Part shown: piece after piece, positions 53,431-61,042 of the stretch
Numbering within the stretch: position 1 is the stretch's first letter
Layout of the letters: each line of letters opens with the position of its first letter
Assembly (NCBI GenBank): GCA_049523555.1
Contig: JBEKMU010000007.1
Coordinates: 1 to 62,707, forward strand
Source of the DNA: Verrucomicrobiota bacterium
GTDB lineage: Bacteria; Verrucomicrobiota; Verrucomicrobiia; Limisphaerales; UBA11358
Direction: 5' to 3'
Length of the DNA stretch: 62,707 nt
Notes under the pieces: generated by a model
What the model saw: only the letters and a program-made list of their open reading frames with translations
The model's database searches: none
Told to the model about the DNA's origin: nothing
Translations under genes and position numbers: made by a program

Positions 53431-54243
53431 GTGCATCCGATTGCGTTTCAACTCGGCTCCTTCACGATCCACTGGTACGGCGTGATGATTGCGCTGGCGT
53501 TTCTCGCCGGGCTTTGGACGGCCACGTTCCGCGCCCGCCGCGAAAACATCCCCGGCGAAAGAATCGCCGATGTCGTCCTGTGGCTGATGGTCGGCTCAAT
53601 CATCGGCGCACGTTTTGTTTATGTGACGACGTATTGGAAGGACGAATTTGCCGGCCAGCCGCTCTCGGAAATTTTCATGATTCAACACGGCGGCCTCGTC
53701 TATTACGGCGGGCTCATCGGCGCGATCCTTGCCGGTTTCATGTACCTTCGCTGGAAAAAAATGCCGCTGTGGAAAACCGCCGACGTGCTCGCGCCGAGCA
53801 TCGCGCTGGGAAACGTCTTTGGCCGCATCGGCTGCCTGCTCAACGGCTGCTGCTTTGGCCGCGCGTGCAGCCTGCCCTGGGCGATTCGATTTCCGAACCA
53901 ATCCGCAGCCTGGGAGCAACATTTTCAGGCCGGTTTGGTGGGCAGAGGTGACCCGTCATTGCCGGTACATCCGACGGAGATTTACGACGCGCTGGACAAT
54001 TTCATTCTTTACCTTCTGCTGGCCTGGCTGTTTCGCCACAAGAAATTCGATGGGCAGGTGTTCGCCACTTATCTCATCGGCTACGCCGTGACCCGCATCA
54101 TCATGGAATGTTTCCGCGGCGATTATCCGCCCGACCACATTCACTACGGCCTCACGCCGGGCGAACTCGTCAGCTTCCCCATTTTCATTGCCGGTCTCGC
54201 CCTCGCCGCGGCGCTCTCGCGGCGTGAGCCGAAACGAGGATAG
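53431..54243 (+). CDS. lgt: prolipoprotein diacylglyceryl transferase
   Basis: IHWYG, GARF.YV, GGLVYYGG, GRIGCLLNGCCFG, HPTEIY. Confidence 0.95.
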   Translation: MHPIAFQLGSFTIHWYGVMIALAFLAGLWTATFRARRENIPGERIADVVLWLMVGSIIGARFVYVTTYWKDEFAGQPLSEIFMIQHGGLVYYGGLIGAILAGFMYLRWKKMPLWKTADVLAPSIALGNVFGRIGCLLNGCCFGRACSLPWAIRFPNQSAAWEQHFQAGLVGRGDPSLPVHPTEIYDALDNFILYLLLAWLFRHKKFDGQVFATYLIGYAVTRIIMECFRGDYPPDHIHYGLTPGELVSFPIFIAGLALAAALSRREPKRG

Positions 54244-54260
54244 CGGATGGAGGATTGAAG

Positions 54261-55217
54261 ATGGCAAAACCCTATCTCCCATCTCCGATCTCCCATCTCC
54301 CGATCCTCATCGCCGGCCCGACCGCCGTCGGCAAATCCCAAATCGCGTTGCAACTCGCCGAACAGCTCGGCGGCGAAATCATTTCCGCCGATTCCATGCA
54401 GGTCTATCGTGGACTCGACATCGGCACGGCCAAACCGTCGTCCGCCGAACGCGCCCGCGTGCCGCATCACCTGATTGACATCTGCGACCTGACCGAATTG
54501 TTCGACGCCGCGCAATTTGCCCGGCTCGCGCACAGTGCCGTGGCGAAAATCCAGTCGCACGGGCGTGTGCCAATTCTCTGTGGCGGCACCGGACTTTACC
54601 TCAAGGCGTTTCTCGAAGGACTCGGCGAAGCGCCGTCCGCCGACGCCAAGTTGCGCGCCGAACTCGAAGCCACACCGTTGGAAAACCTGCTGGAAGAATT
54701 GCGCGAACGCGATCCGGTCACGTTTGAAAAAATTGACAAAAAAAATCCGCGCCGCGTTGTGCGTGCCGTGGAAGTGATTCGTCTGACCGGCCAACCTTTC
54801 TCCAAACAGCGCGCGGACTGGAACACACATCACGCATCACGCATCACGCATCATTTTTACTGCTTCACGCGAACGCCTGCCGACTCGCACGCCCGCATCA
54901 ACGTCCGCGTGGATGCGATGTTCGCGCACGGTTTGGTGGAGGAGACGCGCGAACTGCTCAAGCGCGGCCTTGCGCAAAACAAAACGGCCATGCAGGCCAT
55001 CGGCTACCGGCAGGTGGTGGAACATTTGCGCGGTGAACGATCATTAAAGGAAACCATCGAGCTGGTGAAGATCCGCACGCGGCAATTTGCCAAACGCCAA
55101 CTGACCTGGTTTCGCGCCCAGAAGAATCTCGAGTGGATTGAATTGAACCCGGGCGGATCGCTTGAAAAACGTCTGCAAGAAATTTCTTGTGCGGTTCAGA
55201 ATCAAAACCGAATATGA
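54261..55217 (+). CDS. miaA: tRNA dimethylallyltransferase
   Basis: GPTAVGKS, SADSMQVYRGLDIGTAKP, GGTGLY, AIGY, FAKRQLTWFR. Confidence 0.97.
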   Translation: MAKPYLPSPISHLPILIAGPTAVGKSQIALQLAEQLGGEIISADSMQVYRGLDIGTAKPSSAERARVPHHLIDICDLTELFDAAQFARLAHSAVAKIQSHGRVPILCGGTGLYLKAFLEGLGEAPSADAKLRAELEATPLENLLEELRERDPVTFEKIDKKNPRRVVRAVEVIRLTGQPFSKQRADWNTHHASRITHHFYCFTRTPADSHARINVRVDAMFAHGLVEETRELLKRGLAQNKTAMQAIGYRQVVEHLRGERSLKETIELVKIRTRQFAKRQLTWFRAQKNLEWIELNPGGSLEKRLQEISCAVQNQNRI

Positions 55218-55369
55218 TTCCAGTCCTGTGGAAATGGCTTGGGCGACGCCGGCGATAATGATGGTTGCCGCTCACGATGCGCGCGAATTCGATGCGCGTG
55301 TGCCAGTTCCCTGTGTACCTGTCCGCCGCCGGTCCACCTGAAAGACGAATGAGCACTTGAATTCTGCCT

Positions 55370-57859
55370 GTGCGTATTTCAACAGCAAACAAGGGAGAAG
55401 GGAAATCCACCCGGAAGAGGCTTCCAGGGTTGCTCGTCGTAATCGCCGGCATCATTTTGGGACAGGCGGTTTTATATGGGCCCTCATTGATTGGGCAGAA
55501 AATCCTTTTGCCGCTGGATATTCTCGCCCAACCGGGTTTCTACATTCCTGCAACGCCGGAAACGGCAAAAATCGTGCCGCACGACTTGATCTTGTCCGAC
55601 TTGATTTTGCAATGGGAACCGGCACGGCAATTCGCCATTTCCGAGATGTACCAAGGCCGTTTTCCCTTATGGGCACCGTATCAATATGGGGGCGTCCCTT
55701 GCGTGTGGCCCAAATACTCGCTTTTTCTGCTTCTGGAATGTCTTGCCAAAACACCGGTGATACTTGCCTGGGTGCAACTCTTCGCCGCACTGGTGACAGG
55801 TATGGGAATGTATGTTTTTTGTCGGAGGGTATTGATGGTCAGCTTTTGGCCGGCGGCCGTTTGCGCGTGGTGTTATCCTTTGACGGCCTTTTTTGTTCTG
55901 TGGCAGGGTATCCCAACGGGCTTGGCCGTATACTGGCTGCCGTGGCTTTTTCTGTTGGTTGATCAAACCATCCGGGGCATTAATCCCCTGGCCGTCATTG
56001 GTTTAAGCGTCGTCACATTCCTGGTAATAACCAGCGGCACCATTGACGTTGCCGGACAGGTACTCCTGGGTTCTGGAATTTATGCAATCTGGTGTTTGCG
56101 GGATGCACATCCCGGCGGATGGTTCCACCGGAAATTCCGAACGGCAATCGCGATGCTGGTTCTTGGCTGGGGACTTGGATTTTTACTGGCGACTCCGCAC
56201 CTGTTGCCTCTGCTGGAATACGCACAATCAAGTTCCCGTATGGCGCAGCGCAGCGAAGGTGTAGAGGAGCGACCACCAGTTGGTTTGGCGGCGTTGCCTC
56301 AAGTTTTATTGCCAGACATGTATGGCACAACGGCAAAAGGCAGTTGCTTTATCGGATTCGGAGAGCCAAATCTAATGGAAAGTCCGTCCGCAGCCTATGC
56401 TGGTATTTTTGCCGCCTTGTTGGTCGCACCTCTGGCATGGTTAAGCAGACATCATCGCGCCATCAATGTCTTCTGGGTTTTTCTCGTTTTCTTTGGATTA
56501 AGCTGGTGTCTGAATGTTCCGGGTTTCGTTGATCTGTTGCGTCTGCCGGGATTGAACATGATGTCTCATAATCGCCTGGTGTTCCTGACCTCCTTCGCCA
56601 TTCTCGCCATGACTGCCATCGGGCTTGAAACGCTTTTGCAGGGCTTCATCAACCGGCGATGGTGGTTCTGGTTGCCGGCGATTTTGCTGGTTGGACTTTG
56701 CGGTTGGTGCATCTACCGCAGCATGGTTCTACCCGAACCCATCGCCACCCAGCTGCGGTTCCCCGTTTCTGACGGAAAATATTTCGGGCAAATTCGGGAC
56801 ATTGAAGACGTGCGGCAGGTTCAAGCATGGTTTGTCCGGCATTACCTTGTTATGGCCGTGTTTTGTGGCCTGGGTTTTTTAGGCTGGCTGTTGCTGTGGT
56901 TCCAAAAGGCGGGGCGTTTTTATCTGATGCCGGCGCTGGTGATTTTTCTAATGGGAGATCTGCTGTGGTTTGGCCATTGCCGCAGTGCCCAATGTGACCC
57001 CGCGCTTTACTATCCGGAGATTCCGGTTCTGAATGCAGTTGCCCATTCCACGCCTGCCCGGCTGATTGGCGACCTGCCAGCTCCGCTTGCGTCAATGCAG
57101 GGCTTGAGCGATATCCGGGGATATGATGCCATTGATCCGGCGCGAATGGTGTCCCTCTTAAAACCAGTCGCTGCCCCGGAAAGCGTGATACCCTCTTACG
57201 CACAAACCATGTTGCTGCTGCCGAAAGAAGAGTTTACCCCGCCATCCACCATACGACTTCCCCCCATTTTAGACATGCTCAACGTGCGCTACGTCATCTT
57301 TCGCGGCACTCCCTCCCAAACAATGCAACCGGCGTTTCAAGGAAACGACTATTTCGTATTTGTCAATTCCAATGCCCTCCCCAGAGTGTTCGTTCCAACG
57401 TCCGTGACAATCATTACCAACGATGAAGATGAATTGATGGAATTGTCATCGCCGCAATTCAAGCCGGCAGATATCGCCTGCGTCGAATCGTCCGTCGAAC
57501 TGCCCGCCCGCTGCCGCGGCACGGCGCAAATCACCAAGGAAATTCCAACGCACATCACCATCTCGGCGCAAATGGAAACGCCGGGATTAATCGTGCTGGC
57601 CGACCGATGGGACAAAGGCTGGCGCGCATTGTGGAACGGCCGGCCGGCACCCATCCTCCGGGTGAATTACGCAATTCGTGGCGTTGTGGTGCCAGCCGGG
57701 ACCGGAACATTGGAATTCATTTATAAACCGGCGAGTTTGGTTCTTGGGTTGTGGCTGGCCGGTCTGGCGGCCACGACTCTGCTGTGCTGGCTGGCTGTCA
57801 TCCGGATGAGATCCCGGTCTCGGCAAATCAAATCCCCCGATGAAGCCACTACCCGGTAA
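55370..57859 (+). CDS. YfhO-like GT-C membrane protein
   Basis: PLWAPYQYGGVP, GYDA, LNVRYV, ALPRVF, GWRALWNG...RGVVVPAG. Confidence 0.85.
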   Translation: MRISTANKGEGKSTRKRLPGLLVVIAGIILGQAVLYGPSLIGQKILLPLDILAQPGFYIPATPETAKIVPHDLILSDLILQWEPARQFAISEMYQGRFPLWAPYQYGGVPCVWPKYSLFLLLECLAKTPVILAWVQLFAALVTGMGMYVFCRRVLMVSFWPAAVCAWCYPLTAFFVLWQGIPTGLAVYWLPWLFLLVDQTIRGINPLAVIGLSVVTFLVITSGTIDVAGQVLLGSGIYAIWCLRDAHPGGWFHRKFRTAIAMLVLGWGLGFLLATPHLLPLLEYAQSSSRMAQRSEGVEERPPVGLAALPQVLLPDMYGTTAKGSCFIGFGEPNLMESPSAAYAGIFAALLVAPLAWLSRHHRAINVFWVFLVFFGLSWCLNVPGFVDLLRLPGLNMMSHNRLVFLTSFAILAMTAIGLETLLQGFINRRWWFWLPAILLVGLCGWCIYRSMVLPEPIATQLRFPVSDGKYFGQIRDIEDVRQVQAWFVRHYLVMAVFCGLGFLGWLLLWFQKAGRFYLMPALVIFLMGDLLWFGHCRSAQCDPALYYPEIPVLNAVAHSTPARLIGDLPAPLASMQGLSDIRGYDAIDPARMVSLLKPVAAPESVIPSYAQTMLLLPKEEFTPPSTIRLPPILDMLNVRYVIFRGTPSQTMQPAFQGNDYFVFVNSNALPRVFVPTSVTIITNDEDELMELSSPQFKPADIACVESSVELPARCRGTAQITKEIPTHITISAQMETPGLIVLADRWDKGWRALWNGRPAPILRVNYAIRGVVVPAGTGTLEFIYKPASLVLGLWLAGLAATTLLCWLAVIRMRSRSRQIKSPDEATTR

Positions 57860-57871
57860 GGTTCGTGATCC

Positions 57872-57959
57872 TCGCGCCCAGACAAACCGGGAGTGGATTG
57901 AATTGCAGCCGGATGAGTCGCTGGAAAACCTGGCTAATTTTTTCCGCGGGACATGCTGA
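57872..57959 (+). repeat. second copy of miaA 3' end
   Basis: RAQTNREWIELQPDESLENLANFFRGTC*; shares GAGTGGATTGAATTG (57891-57905) with 55131-55145. Confidence 0.92.
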
Positions 57960-57986
57960 AGGTTTGCCGGAGGAATTTCGCCAGCG

Positions 57987-59828
57987 TCAGCGATGAGGAG
58001 CGGACAGCGTGACGCTCTGTCCGATGGCCGGAACTTTGAATGGCTTGGCGGAAGACGTCCGCCAGTCGAACCAGAGCCAGTGGAAATCGGGCGAATCCAG
58101 CGAGGTATCGAAATGGAACGCAACACAGGAAGGCAAACCCGATGCGTCCGATTCCAGAACTTCCACCGTGAGGCCGCCGAGATTGTAGCGGTCGCCTTTT
58201 TTACATTTGGGTTCGCTCACCAATGTGAAAGTGCTGAAGGCGTAGGTGATATGGATGGGACCGACATCGTCGCAGGAGAATATGTTCGGCCCGTGGGATT
58301 GAATCACCAGCGTTTTGTCATCGGTTCGTTGGACGTCAAAGCCCGTGCAACCCGGCACCAGCACCCGCAGGGTCCTGGGCAGTAACTGGTGATGATACGC
58401 TCTGTAAGAAGGTACATAAGCCGACTCAAGCGGGCAGACTGCATTGACAACGATCACATTTTCGTTCTCGATGTTTGGCCAATCAGGAGGAACGCGGCTC
58501 GCCCAAGTGAAAAGGTAAGAGTCAGCTTTAACCACTGCAACTCTTCCGGCGACCGCTCCCGGCCCATGTGCCAGAATCAGCAAGACACCGGCAGTCCAAG
58601 CTAGGATTCGGTAGCCCGACCATTCCGGCAACCGGCTTGGCCGGATGACCAGCCCGGCAACGAAACTGGCGATCAATCCATAAGCGCCGACCGCTATAAA
58701 GCCGAAGTTCTTGGACAATGGCACCAGCACTGCTTCGGGAATGGCTGCCAATATCATGACCGCAAACCAGAACGCGGCTGTTTTGTCCCGGCGCACCCAC
58801 GGGAGAAAAACCACCAAAGCCGCAACCACAAACACGCCATAAAGTGCAATAACTACCGGATGCAACGAAGGTTTAAGCGCGAACAAAAATTCCGGCGGCA
58901 CGCCGGTAAGCTGGCCTCCCAGCAGAACCGTGGTTCTAGGGATCAGTTCCCGCATAAAATAAAGCGGCTCATGGGCTGGATCAATGTAAATACCCACATG
59001 AGACAGACCGTAGCCGGAGAACGTATAGATGATGCGCCACGCGATAATCACCAAGACCGAAGGCAAAATCGTCAGCGCCCGGTTGTGAAAAGGTTCCGGC
59101 TCAAGCACCAGGGCATACGCGAGGATAAAGGCAAACGTGGAAGCTCCGCTTTCTTCCGCAAAAAGTGAAAGCGCCAGAAATAGAACGGACAGTCCGAGCG
59201 CGGAACGGGATTTTGTGGAACGCCATTGATGATGTTCGTAAAGACACAACAGGCCGAAGAAAAGCGCCAGTAAAAAGCCGCGGTTGGCGACAAACGCCAC
59301 GGGAAAGTAGGTATTGCCATCAAGCAGGAACAGCAGCGCCGCCAGTCCGGCGGCCCAACCCGTTCCCATCAGCTTCCGGTAAACCATCGTGAGGAGAAAC
59401 ACGACGGCCGCAAACCACGCGATGTTATGGGCGTGCATCAGCGCCGGCGAGTCGGGAAAGAGCCGGTAATCGAGCCAGTGCGTAAGCGCGGTGACCGGCC
59501 GGCAAAGACTCAATCTTAAATCGTCCGGCGTCCACCACGGCAAGGTGCCGTAGTTCTTCATCAAAACCATGCATTGTGGATTCCGGCTGAAGCCGAAGAG
59601 GTCAAAAAGGACAGTCGAGAATCTGCCGGAATCCGGGGGGTTGCCCGTCTCCTGCATTCGCGGCGGCAATTGGTCCGGCCGAAGCTCAACCGCGCGCTGA
59701 GGCAGATCATCCATGAACAGGCCGGTCTTCAAGGCGGGCAACATTACCAGTATCGCCCCAATCGCAAGAATCGCAGGAAGGTGGCGGTGCTCAAGAAATC
59801 GCTTCAGGACATTTAAGATTGTTGCCAT
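57987..59828 (-). CDS. GT-C fold (TMTC/PMT-like) membrane glycosyltransferase
   Basis: FMDD, CRPV, MHAHNI, ANR..LL, AEES; many TMs. Confidence 0.7.
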   Translation of the reverse strand: MATILNVLKRFLEHRHLPAILAIGAILVMLPALKTGLFMDDLPQRAVELRPDQLPPRMQETGNPPDSGRFSTVLFDLFGFSRNPQCMVLMKNYGTLPWWTPDDLRLSLCRPVTALTHWLDYRLFPDSPALMHAHNIAWFAAVVFLLTMVYRKLMGTGWAAGLAALLFLLDGNTYFPVAFVANRGFLLALFFGLLCLYEHHQWRSTKSRSALGLSVLFLALSLFAEESGASTFAFILAYALVLEPEPFHNRALTILPSVLVIIAWRIIYTFSGYGLSHVGIYIDPAHEPLYFMRELIPRTTVLLGGQLTGVPPEFLFALKPSLHPVVIALYGVFVVAALVVFLPWVRRDKTAAFWFAVMILAAIPEAVLVPLSKNFGFIAVGAYGLIASFVAGLVIRPSRLPEWSGYRILAWTAGVLLILAHGPGAVAGRVAVVKADSYLFTWASRVPPDWPNIENENVIVVNAVCPLESAYVPSYRAYHHQLLPRTLRVLVPGCTGFDVQRTDDKTLVIQSHGPNIFSCDDVGPIHITYAFSTFTLVSEPKCKKGDRYNLGGLTVEVLESDASGLPSCVAFHFDTSLDSPDFHWLWFDWRTSSAKPFKVPAIGQSVTLSAPHR

Positions 59829-59929
59829 TTCCGGCTCCGTTCCGCTTGGGGTTTTCCAACAAGCCCTTCTTACAAAATTTTGCGCCCAGCCGCCAAGAAT
59901 TTAATTTTCCACAAGACCCGGATTTGGTT

Positions 59930-60007
59930 TTGGAGTGGATTGAATTGAAACCGGATGAATCGCTGGAGAACGTCGCGCAGAAAATTTGTGACACGATTTC
60001 AAATTAA
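59930..60007 (+). repeat. third copy of miaA 3' end
   Basis: LEWIELKPDESLENVAQKICDTISN*; GAGTGGATTGAATTG at 59933-59947. Confidence 0.92.
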
Positions 60008-60156: not shown

Positions 60157-60846
60157 TCACTTCGTTTCTCTTGGTCTTCTGACGACGACATCAATTCCCG
60201 CCTTGTTTTTCGCGATCATGTTCGCAGGTAAAATGCCGCGCCAGAACACGTTCGGGTAAATCACCGCGCCGCGCCCGACGATGCTGCCGGGGTTCAACAC
60301 GGCGTTGCAGCCGATCTCCGCGCCGTCGCCGAGCAGCGCGCCAAATTTCCGCAAGCCGGTGTCGAACGGCTGGCCGTCTATCTCCACCTCGATGTTGCCG
60401 GGGAACAGTTTGTAGTTGGAGATTTTCACGCCCGCGCCGAGGTGCGCCTGGTGGCCAAGAATCGAGTCGCCGACGTAATTGTAGTGCGGCGCGACGGCAT
60501 GATTGAACAGCAGCGAGTTTTTCAATTCGGACGAATTGCCGACCACGCAGCCGTCGCCGATGATGACGTTTTCGCGGATATAGGCGTTGTGGCGGATCTG
60601 GCAATTTTTGCCGATGATGGCCGGGCCTTTGATCATCGCGCCGTCCTCGACCACCGTGCCTTCGCCAATGAAAACCTGCTCACTGATGAAGGCGCGGCCT
60701 TCACATTTGTTGTGGAGCGCCGGTTTGAGATTCGCGGCGAGGTAGGCTTCGATTTTTTTGAGCGCGTCCCAGGTGAATTTGCAGCCATCGAAGATGGCGG
60801 CGTGTTCGGTCTGGTCGAGGTCAAACAAGTCGGCTGGTTTGAACAT
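60157..60846 (-). CDS. left-handed beta-helix acyltransferase (GlmU C-terminal-like)
   Basis: Hexapeptide repeats, HYNYVGDSILG, TGLRKFGA. Confidence 0.88.
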   Translation of the reverse strand: MFKPADLFDLDQTEHAAIFDGCKFTWDALKKIEAYLAANLKPALHNKCEGRAFISEQVFIGEGTVVEDGAMIKGPAIIGKNCQIRHNAYIRENVIIGDGCVVGNSSELKNSLLFNHAVAPHYNYVGDSILGHQAHLGAGVKISNYKLFPGNIEVEIDGQPFDTGLRKFGALLGDGAEIGCNAVLNPGSIVGRGAVIYPNVFWRGILPANMIAKNKAGIDVVVRRPRETK

Positions 60847-60935
60847 GGCGGCAACTTAGGCGAAAGAACGCCGGCGGAAAAGTGAAATGAGACGCCATGG
60901 CCGGGCACGGCTGCAACTTGGCACTGGCGTCGACT

Positions 60936-61042
60936 CCCTCTCCCCGCCCGGGCGGGGAGAGGGCTGGAGCGAGGGGATTTGAGCCGGAAAATAATAGGCC
61001 TCCTCACCCCGCCCCTCTCCTCCTTTGGGGGAGGAGAGGGAG
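60936..61042. repeat. REP-like double hairpin (CCCTCTCCC...GGGAGAGGG family)
   Basis: Two GC-rich hairpins in a divergent intergenic region. Confidence 0.75.

Follow-up and report, generated by a model that had tools for sequence, protein, structure and literature searches.

The region analysed here (the window) is a stretch of 62,707 nucleotides (nt) from a member of the Verrucomicrobiota (Limisphaerales, UBA11358; assembly GCA_049523555.1, contig JBEKMU010000007.1, positions 1 to 62,707 of the forward strand), in which the 3' end of miaA occurs three times and separates two genes for membrane proteins. The source is a metagenome-assembled genome (MAG) of 192 contigs and 3.13 Mb (G000, 92% complete; window contig C7); the bacterium is uncultured and, to judge from the record titles of relatives and from run labels, lives in peat or soil. 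The conserved left neighbour of the locus is lgt, encoding prolipoprotein diacylglyceryl transferase (53431..54243, plus strand; PF01790, E 6.8e-73), which is syntenic in relatives. It is followed by the working miaA gene for tRNA dimethylallyltransferase (54255..55217, plus strand). The product matches PF01715 across profile positions 1-243 of 243 (E 9e-85; 284.7 bits against a cut-off of 23.6), a full-length match above the curated threshold for MiaA, or isopentenyl-diphosphate transferase. The conserved right border is a gene for a hexapeptide-repeat, GlmU C-terminal-like transferase (hexa; 60157..60846, minus strand; PF00132, E 1.9e-21, with a partial TIGR03992 match).

The 15-base core GAGTGGATTGAATTG is present on the plus strand at 55131, 57891 and 59933 with 0 mismatches, the three positions given in the preliminary description of this DNA. 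The window holds no further site at up to two mismatches (chance expectation 0.18), and three sites were reached in none of 100 shuffled sequences. Each core is read in frame as EWIEL and continues into a different miaA tail and a stop codon; the translated ends are ...RAQKNLEWIELNPGGSLEKRLQEISCAVQNQNRI, ...RAQTNREWIELQPDESLENLANFFRGTC and ...EWIELKPDESLENVAQKICDTISN for copies 1, 2 and 3, respectively. The core is part of a wider 57-nt repeat family (55112-55168; 57872-57928, 79%; 59914-59970, 67%), and the similarity of the tail copies spans 57-100 nt with tails and stops included. Copy 1 is the end of the full-length gene. A profile built from 20 miaA tails and run over G000 matched only the three copies in the window. 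A scan of the same assembly for short, diverged direct repeats within 12 kb returned 263 pairs, mostly paralogues and repeat proteins.

Cut at the cores, the interval resolves into two units. Cassette 1 (55131..57890, plus strand, 2760 nt) starts at core copy 1 (55131..55145), the junction with the resident miaA, and contains a replacement tail, a YfhO-family candidate gene and a 19-nt miaA-like right arm (57872-57890, plus strand, read from alignments). The last 24 miaA codons after the core are thus the tail of cassette 1, and the same tail is found in other carriers of the YfhO gene (L097, L131, L171 and L058; L numbers denote miaA loci and G numbers genomes). In blastn clustering this cassette groups with L097, L163, L166, L131 and L171. 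The second unit, cassette 2 (57891..59932, plus strand, 2042 nt), comprises the tail of copy 2, a minus-strand gene and a right arm that includes an inserted stretch (about 59880-59932, plus strand); it is 87.2% identical over 2130 nt to L031 2555-4683 and clusters with L094 and L100. The remnant tail copy 2 (57872..57959, plus strand) was delimited by tail comparison and consists of the arm of cassette 1, the core at 57891-57905 and a stop at 57957-57959. Copy 3 (59933..60007, plus strand) is likewise a remnant; its likeness to the tails of empty loci marks it as the original miaA end, and the native spacer of 150 nt lies between it and hexa.

The gene of cassette 1, open reading frame (ORF) 1 (55370..57859, plus strand), encodes a polytopic membrane protein of 829 amino acids (aa). 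The match to PF09586 was below threshold (21.6 bits against a cut-off of 28.5) and covered the last 50 profile positions, a C-terminal stretch; no NCBIfam match was found. All 30 of 30 Atlas feature matches were YfhO clusters, with scores of up to 1.00, and YfhO membership is retained as a lead from these comparisons. L058, L097, L131 and L171 each have an orthologue behind miaA; these four resemble one another at 80-87% and are 67-70% identical to the window protein. The fold of YfhO proteins is GT-C.

ORF2 (57987..59828, minus strand, 613 aa) had no sequence match in Pfam, NCBIfam or the PDB, and no Pfam or NCBIfam model covers its family, which numbers 4140 representative clusters at E <= 0.001, 1363 of them at <= 1e-30. 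An AlphaFold model on 54 relatives was of high confidence (pLDDT 94.7, pTM 0.94). The best Foldseek folds were PglB, STT3, AglB, ArnT, ALG9/12, AftD, PimE, DPY19 and Pmt4 (best E 1.7e-5), with 14 matches at E <= 0.001, but the TM-scores were only 0.35-0.44. Nine residues (D40, G94, W98, W99, R183, E226, W264, P284 and P600) were invariant in the 54 members; D40 lies just after the first helix, and D41 beside it is at least 90% conserved. With its multi-helix membrane domain and an acidic motif in the first outward loop, ORF2 is predicted by the model to be a glycosyltransferase of GT-C fold. The preliminary description had named the two genes YfhO-like (plus strand) and TMTC/PMT-like (minus strand). 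For ORF2 the GT-C fold stood, whereas membership of PMT or TMTC could not be shown, as no PMT, PMT_2 or TMTC profile of Pfam or NCBIfam matched the protein; traces of PMT_2 were confined to one of the 54 relatives (E 0.0055) and to five of 30 Atlas clusters (11% of members). The label of two GT-C cassettes is reasonable for the window. The GT-C gene is accessory, being present in five of 41 relatives searched, and in G011, G016 and G004 it sits elsewhere, without any miaA tail. As the gene occurs at other loci without tails, the cassettes are made from ordinary genes.

Related miaA loci were collected from 20 genomes of the genus, from 52 verrucomicrobial records among 80 genomic contigs and from 80 metagenome contigs. 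Some records are duplicates (L097 = L163 = L166; L094 = G022; L086 = G003; L058 = G011), and many of the metagenome contigs stop within 1-2 kb of miaA. The cassette number and the length of the interval had been expected to vary among relatives, which they do. Over the 57 loci that reach hexa, the gap between miaA and hexa, approximate because it was taken from tblastn ends, ranged from 3 to 6765 nt; 19 loci were empty (under 300 nt) and 38 had gaps of over 400 nt. The cargo includes Phd-type toxin-antitoxin (TA) pairs, PIN, cupin, Clp_N, Abi_C, NACHT, subtilase and PPDK genes, and an rve insertion sequence (IS). The latter lies in L056 (11790-12833, minus strand; rve, rve_3, HTH_21) at a locus without miaA remnants.

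At E < 1e-3, the tail profile found a tail in 126 of 133 loci and two or three tails in 20, with all 23 extra tails on the miaA strand, i.e., in direct orientation. A strict 26-letter pattern matched in 78 of 163 genomes of the genus, with at least two matches within 3 kb on one contig and strand in 13; the reversed control pattern gave 0 matches. Cutting the arrays at the cores and clustering the pieces by blastn yielded nine cassette families, with single units of 588-2760 nt whose gene ends lie near the repeats. The array of two single-gene cassettes at a protein-coding target in the window is of a recurrent kind. The families are TA (L051, L061, L067, L086, L150, L200), cupin (L094, L100), GT-C (window, L094, L100), YfhO (window, the L097 group, and L131 and L171, whose units add a second gene with a spermine-synthase domain), PIN (L054, L143) and four singletons (L195, L197, L064, L188). 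The TA cassette (e.g., L045) has a 96-aa ORF matching PF02604, the Phd/YefM antitoxin (E 2.3e-10), which places the pair in type II; the overlapping 98-aa partner is without a Pfam match, and the name RelE/ParE-like is our own reading.

Some arrays are split. In G146 (L216/L217), G085 (L218/L219/L226), G090 (L223/L227/L228) and G168 (L225), a half consisting of remnant, cassette, remnant, Clp_N and hexa lies away from miaA, after a gene for a GH57 branching enzyme. In G146 this hexa-side half shares a contig with miaA but lies 557 kb away on the opposite strand, and a toxin fragment precedes the remnant; in G085 the gene after miaA is tyrS. This looks like a rearrangement with the breakpoint inside the first cassette. 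The remnants in these four genomes were considered as secondary docking sites and rejected, as they are the rearranged hexa-side halves of arrays. G146 also carries a 293-nt direct duplication of 91.5% identity (L216 2719-3009 and 4172-4463, 1454 nt apart), which covers the miaA tail and ~180 nt downstream and is longer than the repeats of other arrays.

The modules recur in different combinations. The layout nearest to the window is that of G022 (L031/L094), where miaA is followed by a 637-nt cupin cassette, a tail of the copy 2 type, a GT-C gene (86% aa identity), a remnant of the copy 3 type and hexa; window positions 57873-59999 are 87% identical to it over 2130 nt, and the flanks 83-91%. 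The GT-C-linked copy 2 type of tail is preceded by YfhO in the window, by cupin in L094 and L100 and by TA in L200, and it is the working miaA tail of L062, where a GT-C fragment still abuts hexa. The YfhO cassette always has its own tail type, while the sequence downstream of it is the GT-C cassette in the window, a deleted TA cassette in L097 and hexa directly in L058. At about 13650-13900 of L097, the YfhO ORF reads into a miaA remnant whose tail is joined to the C-terminal residues of a Phd antitoxin (..LAYKELDLDDENFGL, then stop), the trace of a largely deleted TA cassette. In L058 and L171, the tail of the YfhO type stops at an earlier TAA (..ISRAIRK) with an in-frame NRI and stop after it, whereas the window reads through to ..QNQNRI.

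Copy 3 shares 94% of 67 nt with the tails in use at L068 and L170, both of them empty, and 85% of 92 nt with that of L133; its peptide fits tails common among empty loci. For the GT-C family in three genomes, the stretch before core 2 is 71% alike and the tail after it 85%, which fits an arm that is part of the preceding cassette. From this we infer that the original end was joined by the GT-C cassette and then by the YfhO cassette, the newest unit adjoining miaA. Both spare tail types of the window serve as working miaA ends in relatives, and for this reason the reading frame would stay intact after recombination between cores, as had been proposed for excision at any pair of them.

The place of the exchange was narrowed by a pair of sister loci, L150 with a TA cassette and the empty L160, which are supported as sisters (SH-aLRT 99) in a host tree of 103 rows made by a quick IQ-TREE run on 1470 nt of lgt and the 5' part of miaA. 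Compared with L160, copy 1 of L150 agrees at 66/70 positions on the left and 29/60 on the right, and copy 2 at 27/70 on the left and 59/60 on the right, from where the near-identity runs on through the spacer. The difference between the two loci thus amounts to exactly one unit of 646 nt, with the core as its boundary, and their shared ancestry switches at the core on both sides of the insert; the idea that the core might be a crossover site was supported by this pair. The cores (GAATGGATTGAATTG in L160, GAATGGATGGAATTG in L150 copy 1 and AAATGGATTGAATTG in L150 copy 2) would fit one reciprocal exchange between core positions 2 and 8, and an exchange just right of the core together with one point change would also explain them. 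Of the 18-19 nt of the arm before core 2 of L150, 3-4 depart from the resident sequence of L160, against 2 of the 125 nt to its right; the arm therefore came with the cassette. When the alignments of L061 and L067 are read by eye, the opening bases of the core side with the left flank, and the odd right half of core 2 in L067 is also found in its empty sisters L084 and L205; read in this way, the ancestry switch would fall between core positions 3 and 10. A crossover at the left edge of the arm (about -19), in the style of tRNA-targeting integrases, was rejected, since the arm in L150 is foreign but the sequence before core 1 is resident.

TA carriers occupy six separate places in the host tree, beside empty or differently filled relatives. 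In four genomes the TA cassette is 85.5-90.6% identical, compared with 76-84% for the lgt-miaA flanks. In 9 of 15 pairs, the proportion of synonymous differences was smaller in both TA genes than in any of the host genes compared; most pairs involving L200 lacked this, and each TA gene offers ~70 synonymous sites only.

We consider it likely that the window holds a stack of two Campbell-type insertions, made one after the other at the end of miaA through an exchange in or beside the core. Direct observations are the repeats, their modular arrangement, the empty and differently filled alleles and the ancestry switch at the core; from these we infer a circular intermediate and a catalyst. A cassette would consist of a miaA-like right arm (about 19-29 nt), the EWIEL core, a replacement miaA tail with its stop and one gene. 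In circular, or at least tail-bearing, form it would recombine reciprocally with the chromosomal miaA in or right beside the 15-bp core, after which miaA would run into the incoming tail and the former tail would be displaced downstream as a dead direct repeat. The starting state would have been the original end, copy 3 with its native spacer; entry of the GT-C cassette would have made copy 2 the working tail, and the later entry of the YfhO cassette copy 1. Whenever any two of the cores recombined, cassettes would be lost and an intact miaA retained. The contigs of four sequencing runs (X1-X4) contained neither a go-back joint nor a skip of 2760, 2042 or 4802 nt in the window, which is no evidence either way, as contigs cannot show rare forms. 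A single long skip from 55045 to 59932 (X1 and X3; 36 letters on the short side) was dismissed as a relative's ordinary miaA, the conserved block of which fits copy 3 best.

The catalyst could be a site-specific recombinase supplied in trans or, with equal plausibility, host homologous recombination acting on the short conserved block, each being somewhat short of an even chance; another kind of one-sided or illegitimate joining is the less probable third candidate, and random joins would hardly produce the arm start that independent families share. A more ambitious version, which we put forward tentatively and would not expect to hold in full, is an integron-like capture platform of this genus of soil Verrucomicrobia that docks at the coding end of miaA. 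Circles of one or two genes with arm, core and spare tail would be inserted and excised at an exchange region of roughly 7 bp in the core, either by a recombinase encoded elsewhere in the genome or by an unrecognised, recombinase-independent route.

Several results weigh against serial insertion at a dedicated site. No integrase, resolvase, tyrosine recombinase or serine recombinase was found among the 134 ORFs (32 + 102) behind miaA in relatives, where the only mobile gene was the rve transposase of L056. G000 has 11 matches to PF00589 (tyrosine recombinase), none of them on C7, and 0 matches to PF00239, the large-serine Recombinase domain not having been searched separately. No hairpin was found at the site in six folds (three copies, both strands; z-scores -0.34 to 0.76). 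The core had been expected to be conserved beyond protein constraint, and this expectation failed: its synonymous sites are no better kept than those of neighbouring codons (ATT 32/37, GAA 35/41 and TTG 30/43 in the core; GCC 44/47 and ATC 40/44 nearby), and remnant cores decay (e.g., GAACGG, GGGCGG). The cassettes of the window bear no sign of recent transfer, in that the GT-C cassette is no closer to L031 than its flanks are and the YfhO identities to other carriers mirror the host tree. The arms fall into a short class, starting 18-29 nt before the core in seven to eight families (read by eye), and long arms of 47-78 nt (L200, L051, L054, L143, L197); the arms of L200, L054, L188 and L131 are identical to the miaA of the respective genome. 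Long arms and arms of own sequence suggest gene conversion, homology-driven exchange or duplication in place of a fixed site. On the other side, RecA-mediated exchange usually needs 25-35 bp of identity (PMC6382021), and the 15 bp of exact core identity fall short of that.

The main rival to serial insertion is an islet without a dedicated site, built by homology-facilitated illegitimate recombination (HFIR). In this view, incoming foreign DNA headed by the miaA end of a relative would have been held in the recipient miaA by homology on one side, and an illegitimate join a few dozen nucleotides further upstream in that gene would have taken up the other side. The whole old tail would have stayed behind as a remnant, and later shuffling would have been ordinary homologous recombination between diverged alleles. 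Such one-sided joining followed by ordinary recombination seems rather unlikely to us. It needs no recombinase gene, and none lies in or beside any array; it accommodates remnant arms of own sequence (L200, L054, L188, L131) and arm lengths of about 13 to 78 nt; cargo is often without a remnant (38 of 57 gaps over 400 nt against extra tails in 20 of 133 loci); the GT-C gene of G011, G016 and G004 is tail-less; and HFIR with joins of 3-10 bp is documented (PMC6382021). On the other side, the remnant arm of L150 differs from the resident sequence of its sister at 3-4 of 18-19 positions and hence is cassette-borne. One TA right end with its own arm allele type is joined to differing downstream tails in L086, L061 and L067. 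The nearly identical arm start of seven to eight independent families and the complete lack of remnants that start after the core also speak against it.

Two further explanations were weighed. Integrase-bearing elements could have inserted repeatedly at the miaA 3' end and then lost all but one or two cargo genes. The architecture, a working gene with a foreign tail and displaced direct repeats, is that of the attL and attR of elements which replace 3' ends, and tandem integration that pushes older elements outward is known for tycheposons (10.1101/2020.12.28.424599). Yet a tyrosine or serine recombinase is present in 0 of 20 arrays and in none of the post-miaA ORFs, and the single units of the nine families are all tiny (588-2760 nt), their genes ending close to the repeats; such decayed islands are improbable. 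A chimeric MAG assembly or the chance recurrence of a short coding motif is more improbable still, to the point of being negligible. The source is a MAG of many contigs, and the best read set, X1, is maybe the source sample. Against this stand the shuffles and a similarity that extends over 57-100 nt of tails and stops. Independently assembled contigs of X1 span the junctions of miaA with ORF1 (55004-55702) and of ORF1, copy 2 and ORF2 (56579-58011) with 0 differences, and the order copy 2, ORF2, copy 3 is repeated in two relatives, on contigs of 0.54 Mb and 4.6 Mb. Because of these bridged junctions and the same layout in independent assemblies, the structure of the window is not an assembly artefact.

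Serial insertion at miaA was compared with known systems. The 3' end of rlmH (orfX) in staphylococci hosts composite islands of staphylococcal cassette chromosome (SCC) and pseudo-SCC elements, whose units of many kb are moved by Ccr serine recombinases. As in SCC, insertion is into the final codons of a housekeeping gene that is conserved and stays intact, and a short core lies as direct repeats between tandem units; some SCC elements are also without a recombinase of their own and are served in trans. The insertion in the window is likewise at a 3' end, that of miaA and not of rlmH. Unlike SCC, G000 has no PF00239 match, and the units are of 0.6-2.8 kb with one or two genes, each with a long, divergent replacement tail. 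The prophages e14 and phage 21 insert in the 3' end of icd in E. coli by their own tyrosine integrase, as single insertions that leave a displaced icd remnant. Here too the incoming DNA brings an alternative 3' end and the old one is displaced as a downstream direct repeat; in contrast to these prophages, no integrase lies at the edge of the insert, the cassettes are tiny, up to two stand in tandem, and nine families share one site.

Integron arrays are made of single-gene units with their own recombination site; new units join at the head of the array, no recombinase is encoded in the cassettes, and where the cassettes originate is unexplained. The miaA arrays are alike in these respects. Unlike integrons, however, they have no intI (no PF00589 match on C7 or in the 134 post-miaA ORFs) and no attC-like hairpin, the folds of the site being unremarkable; their genes face either way, and as a site they use the coding end of a housekeeping gene. 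Tycheposons of Prochlorococcus target tRNA genes and carry tyrosine recombinases and replication modules (10.1101/2020.12.28.424599). In them, repeated integration at one site pushes older elements deeper into the island, partial copies of the target remain scattered as remnants and the cargo is adaptive, features in which the miaA arrays resemble them. By contrast, miaA is a protein-coding target, and no element-borne machinery is present. The miaA arrays therefore share the logic common to SCC, icd/e14, tycheposons and integrons, yet one defining feature of each is absent. No paper in the literature searched ties miaA to an integration site, an attB or an integrase in the sense of a cassette target.

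As a natural series the locus is unusually clear: nine families at a single target, sister alleles with and without a cassette, and a junction that can be placed to within a few bases, all in a large, uncultured group of peat and soil Verrucomicrobia. Gene gain at hotspots is a major route of bacterial genome change, and how tiny pieces of DNA without a mobility gene enter and leave is poorly understood. Were a recombinase acting in trans, the site and cassettes would be a new and directly testable capture system; were host recombination sufficient, a conserved block of 15-40 nt at the end of a core gene would act as portable homology. An integron-like platform would amount to a new class of mobile cassettes, devoid of a recombinase, by which ordinary genes of the chromosome become portable. 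A role of the hotspot in diversifying the cell surface is suggested by the cargo of the window, two GT-C glycosyltransferases next to a sugar-nucleotide acyltransferase-like gene; the cargo of relatives comprises TA pairs, PIN, Abi, NACHT and other accessory genes.

A few observations fall outside the arrays. The miaA proteins of G003, G017, G001, G010, G005 and G016 match the window protein in two pieces (about residues 1-190 and 198-310) within one long frame, which suggests a stretch inserted in mid-protein. The titles of L063, L065, L071, L072, L078, L082, L084 and L089 name Bifidobacteriaceae, Acidobacteriota, Chloroflexota or Vulcanimicrobiota despite their place inside the verrucomicrobial lgt-miaA tree; these records are probably mislabelled or mis-binned MAGs. 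Between hexa and a gene for an ABC ATPase, a pair of G+C-rich palindromic units of the CCCTCTCC...GGAGAGGG type was identified at 60934-61042. The units have 41-nt arms that are 73% complementary and include one perfect 15-nt palindrome, and the pair may be a repetitive extragenic palindromic (REP)-like element or a pair of terminators.

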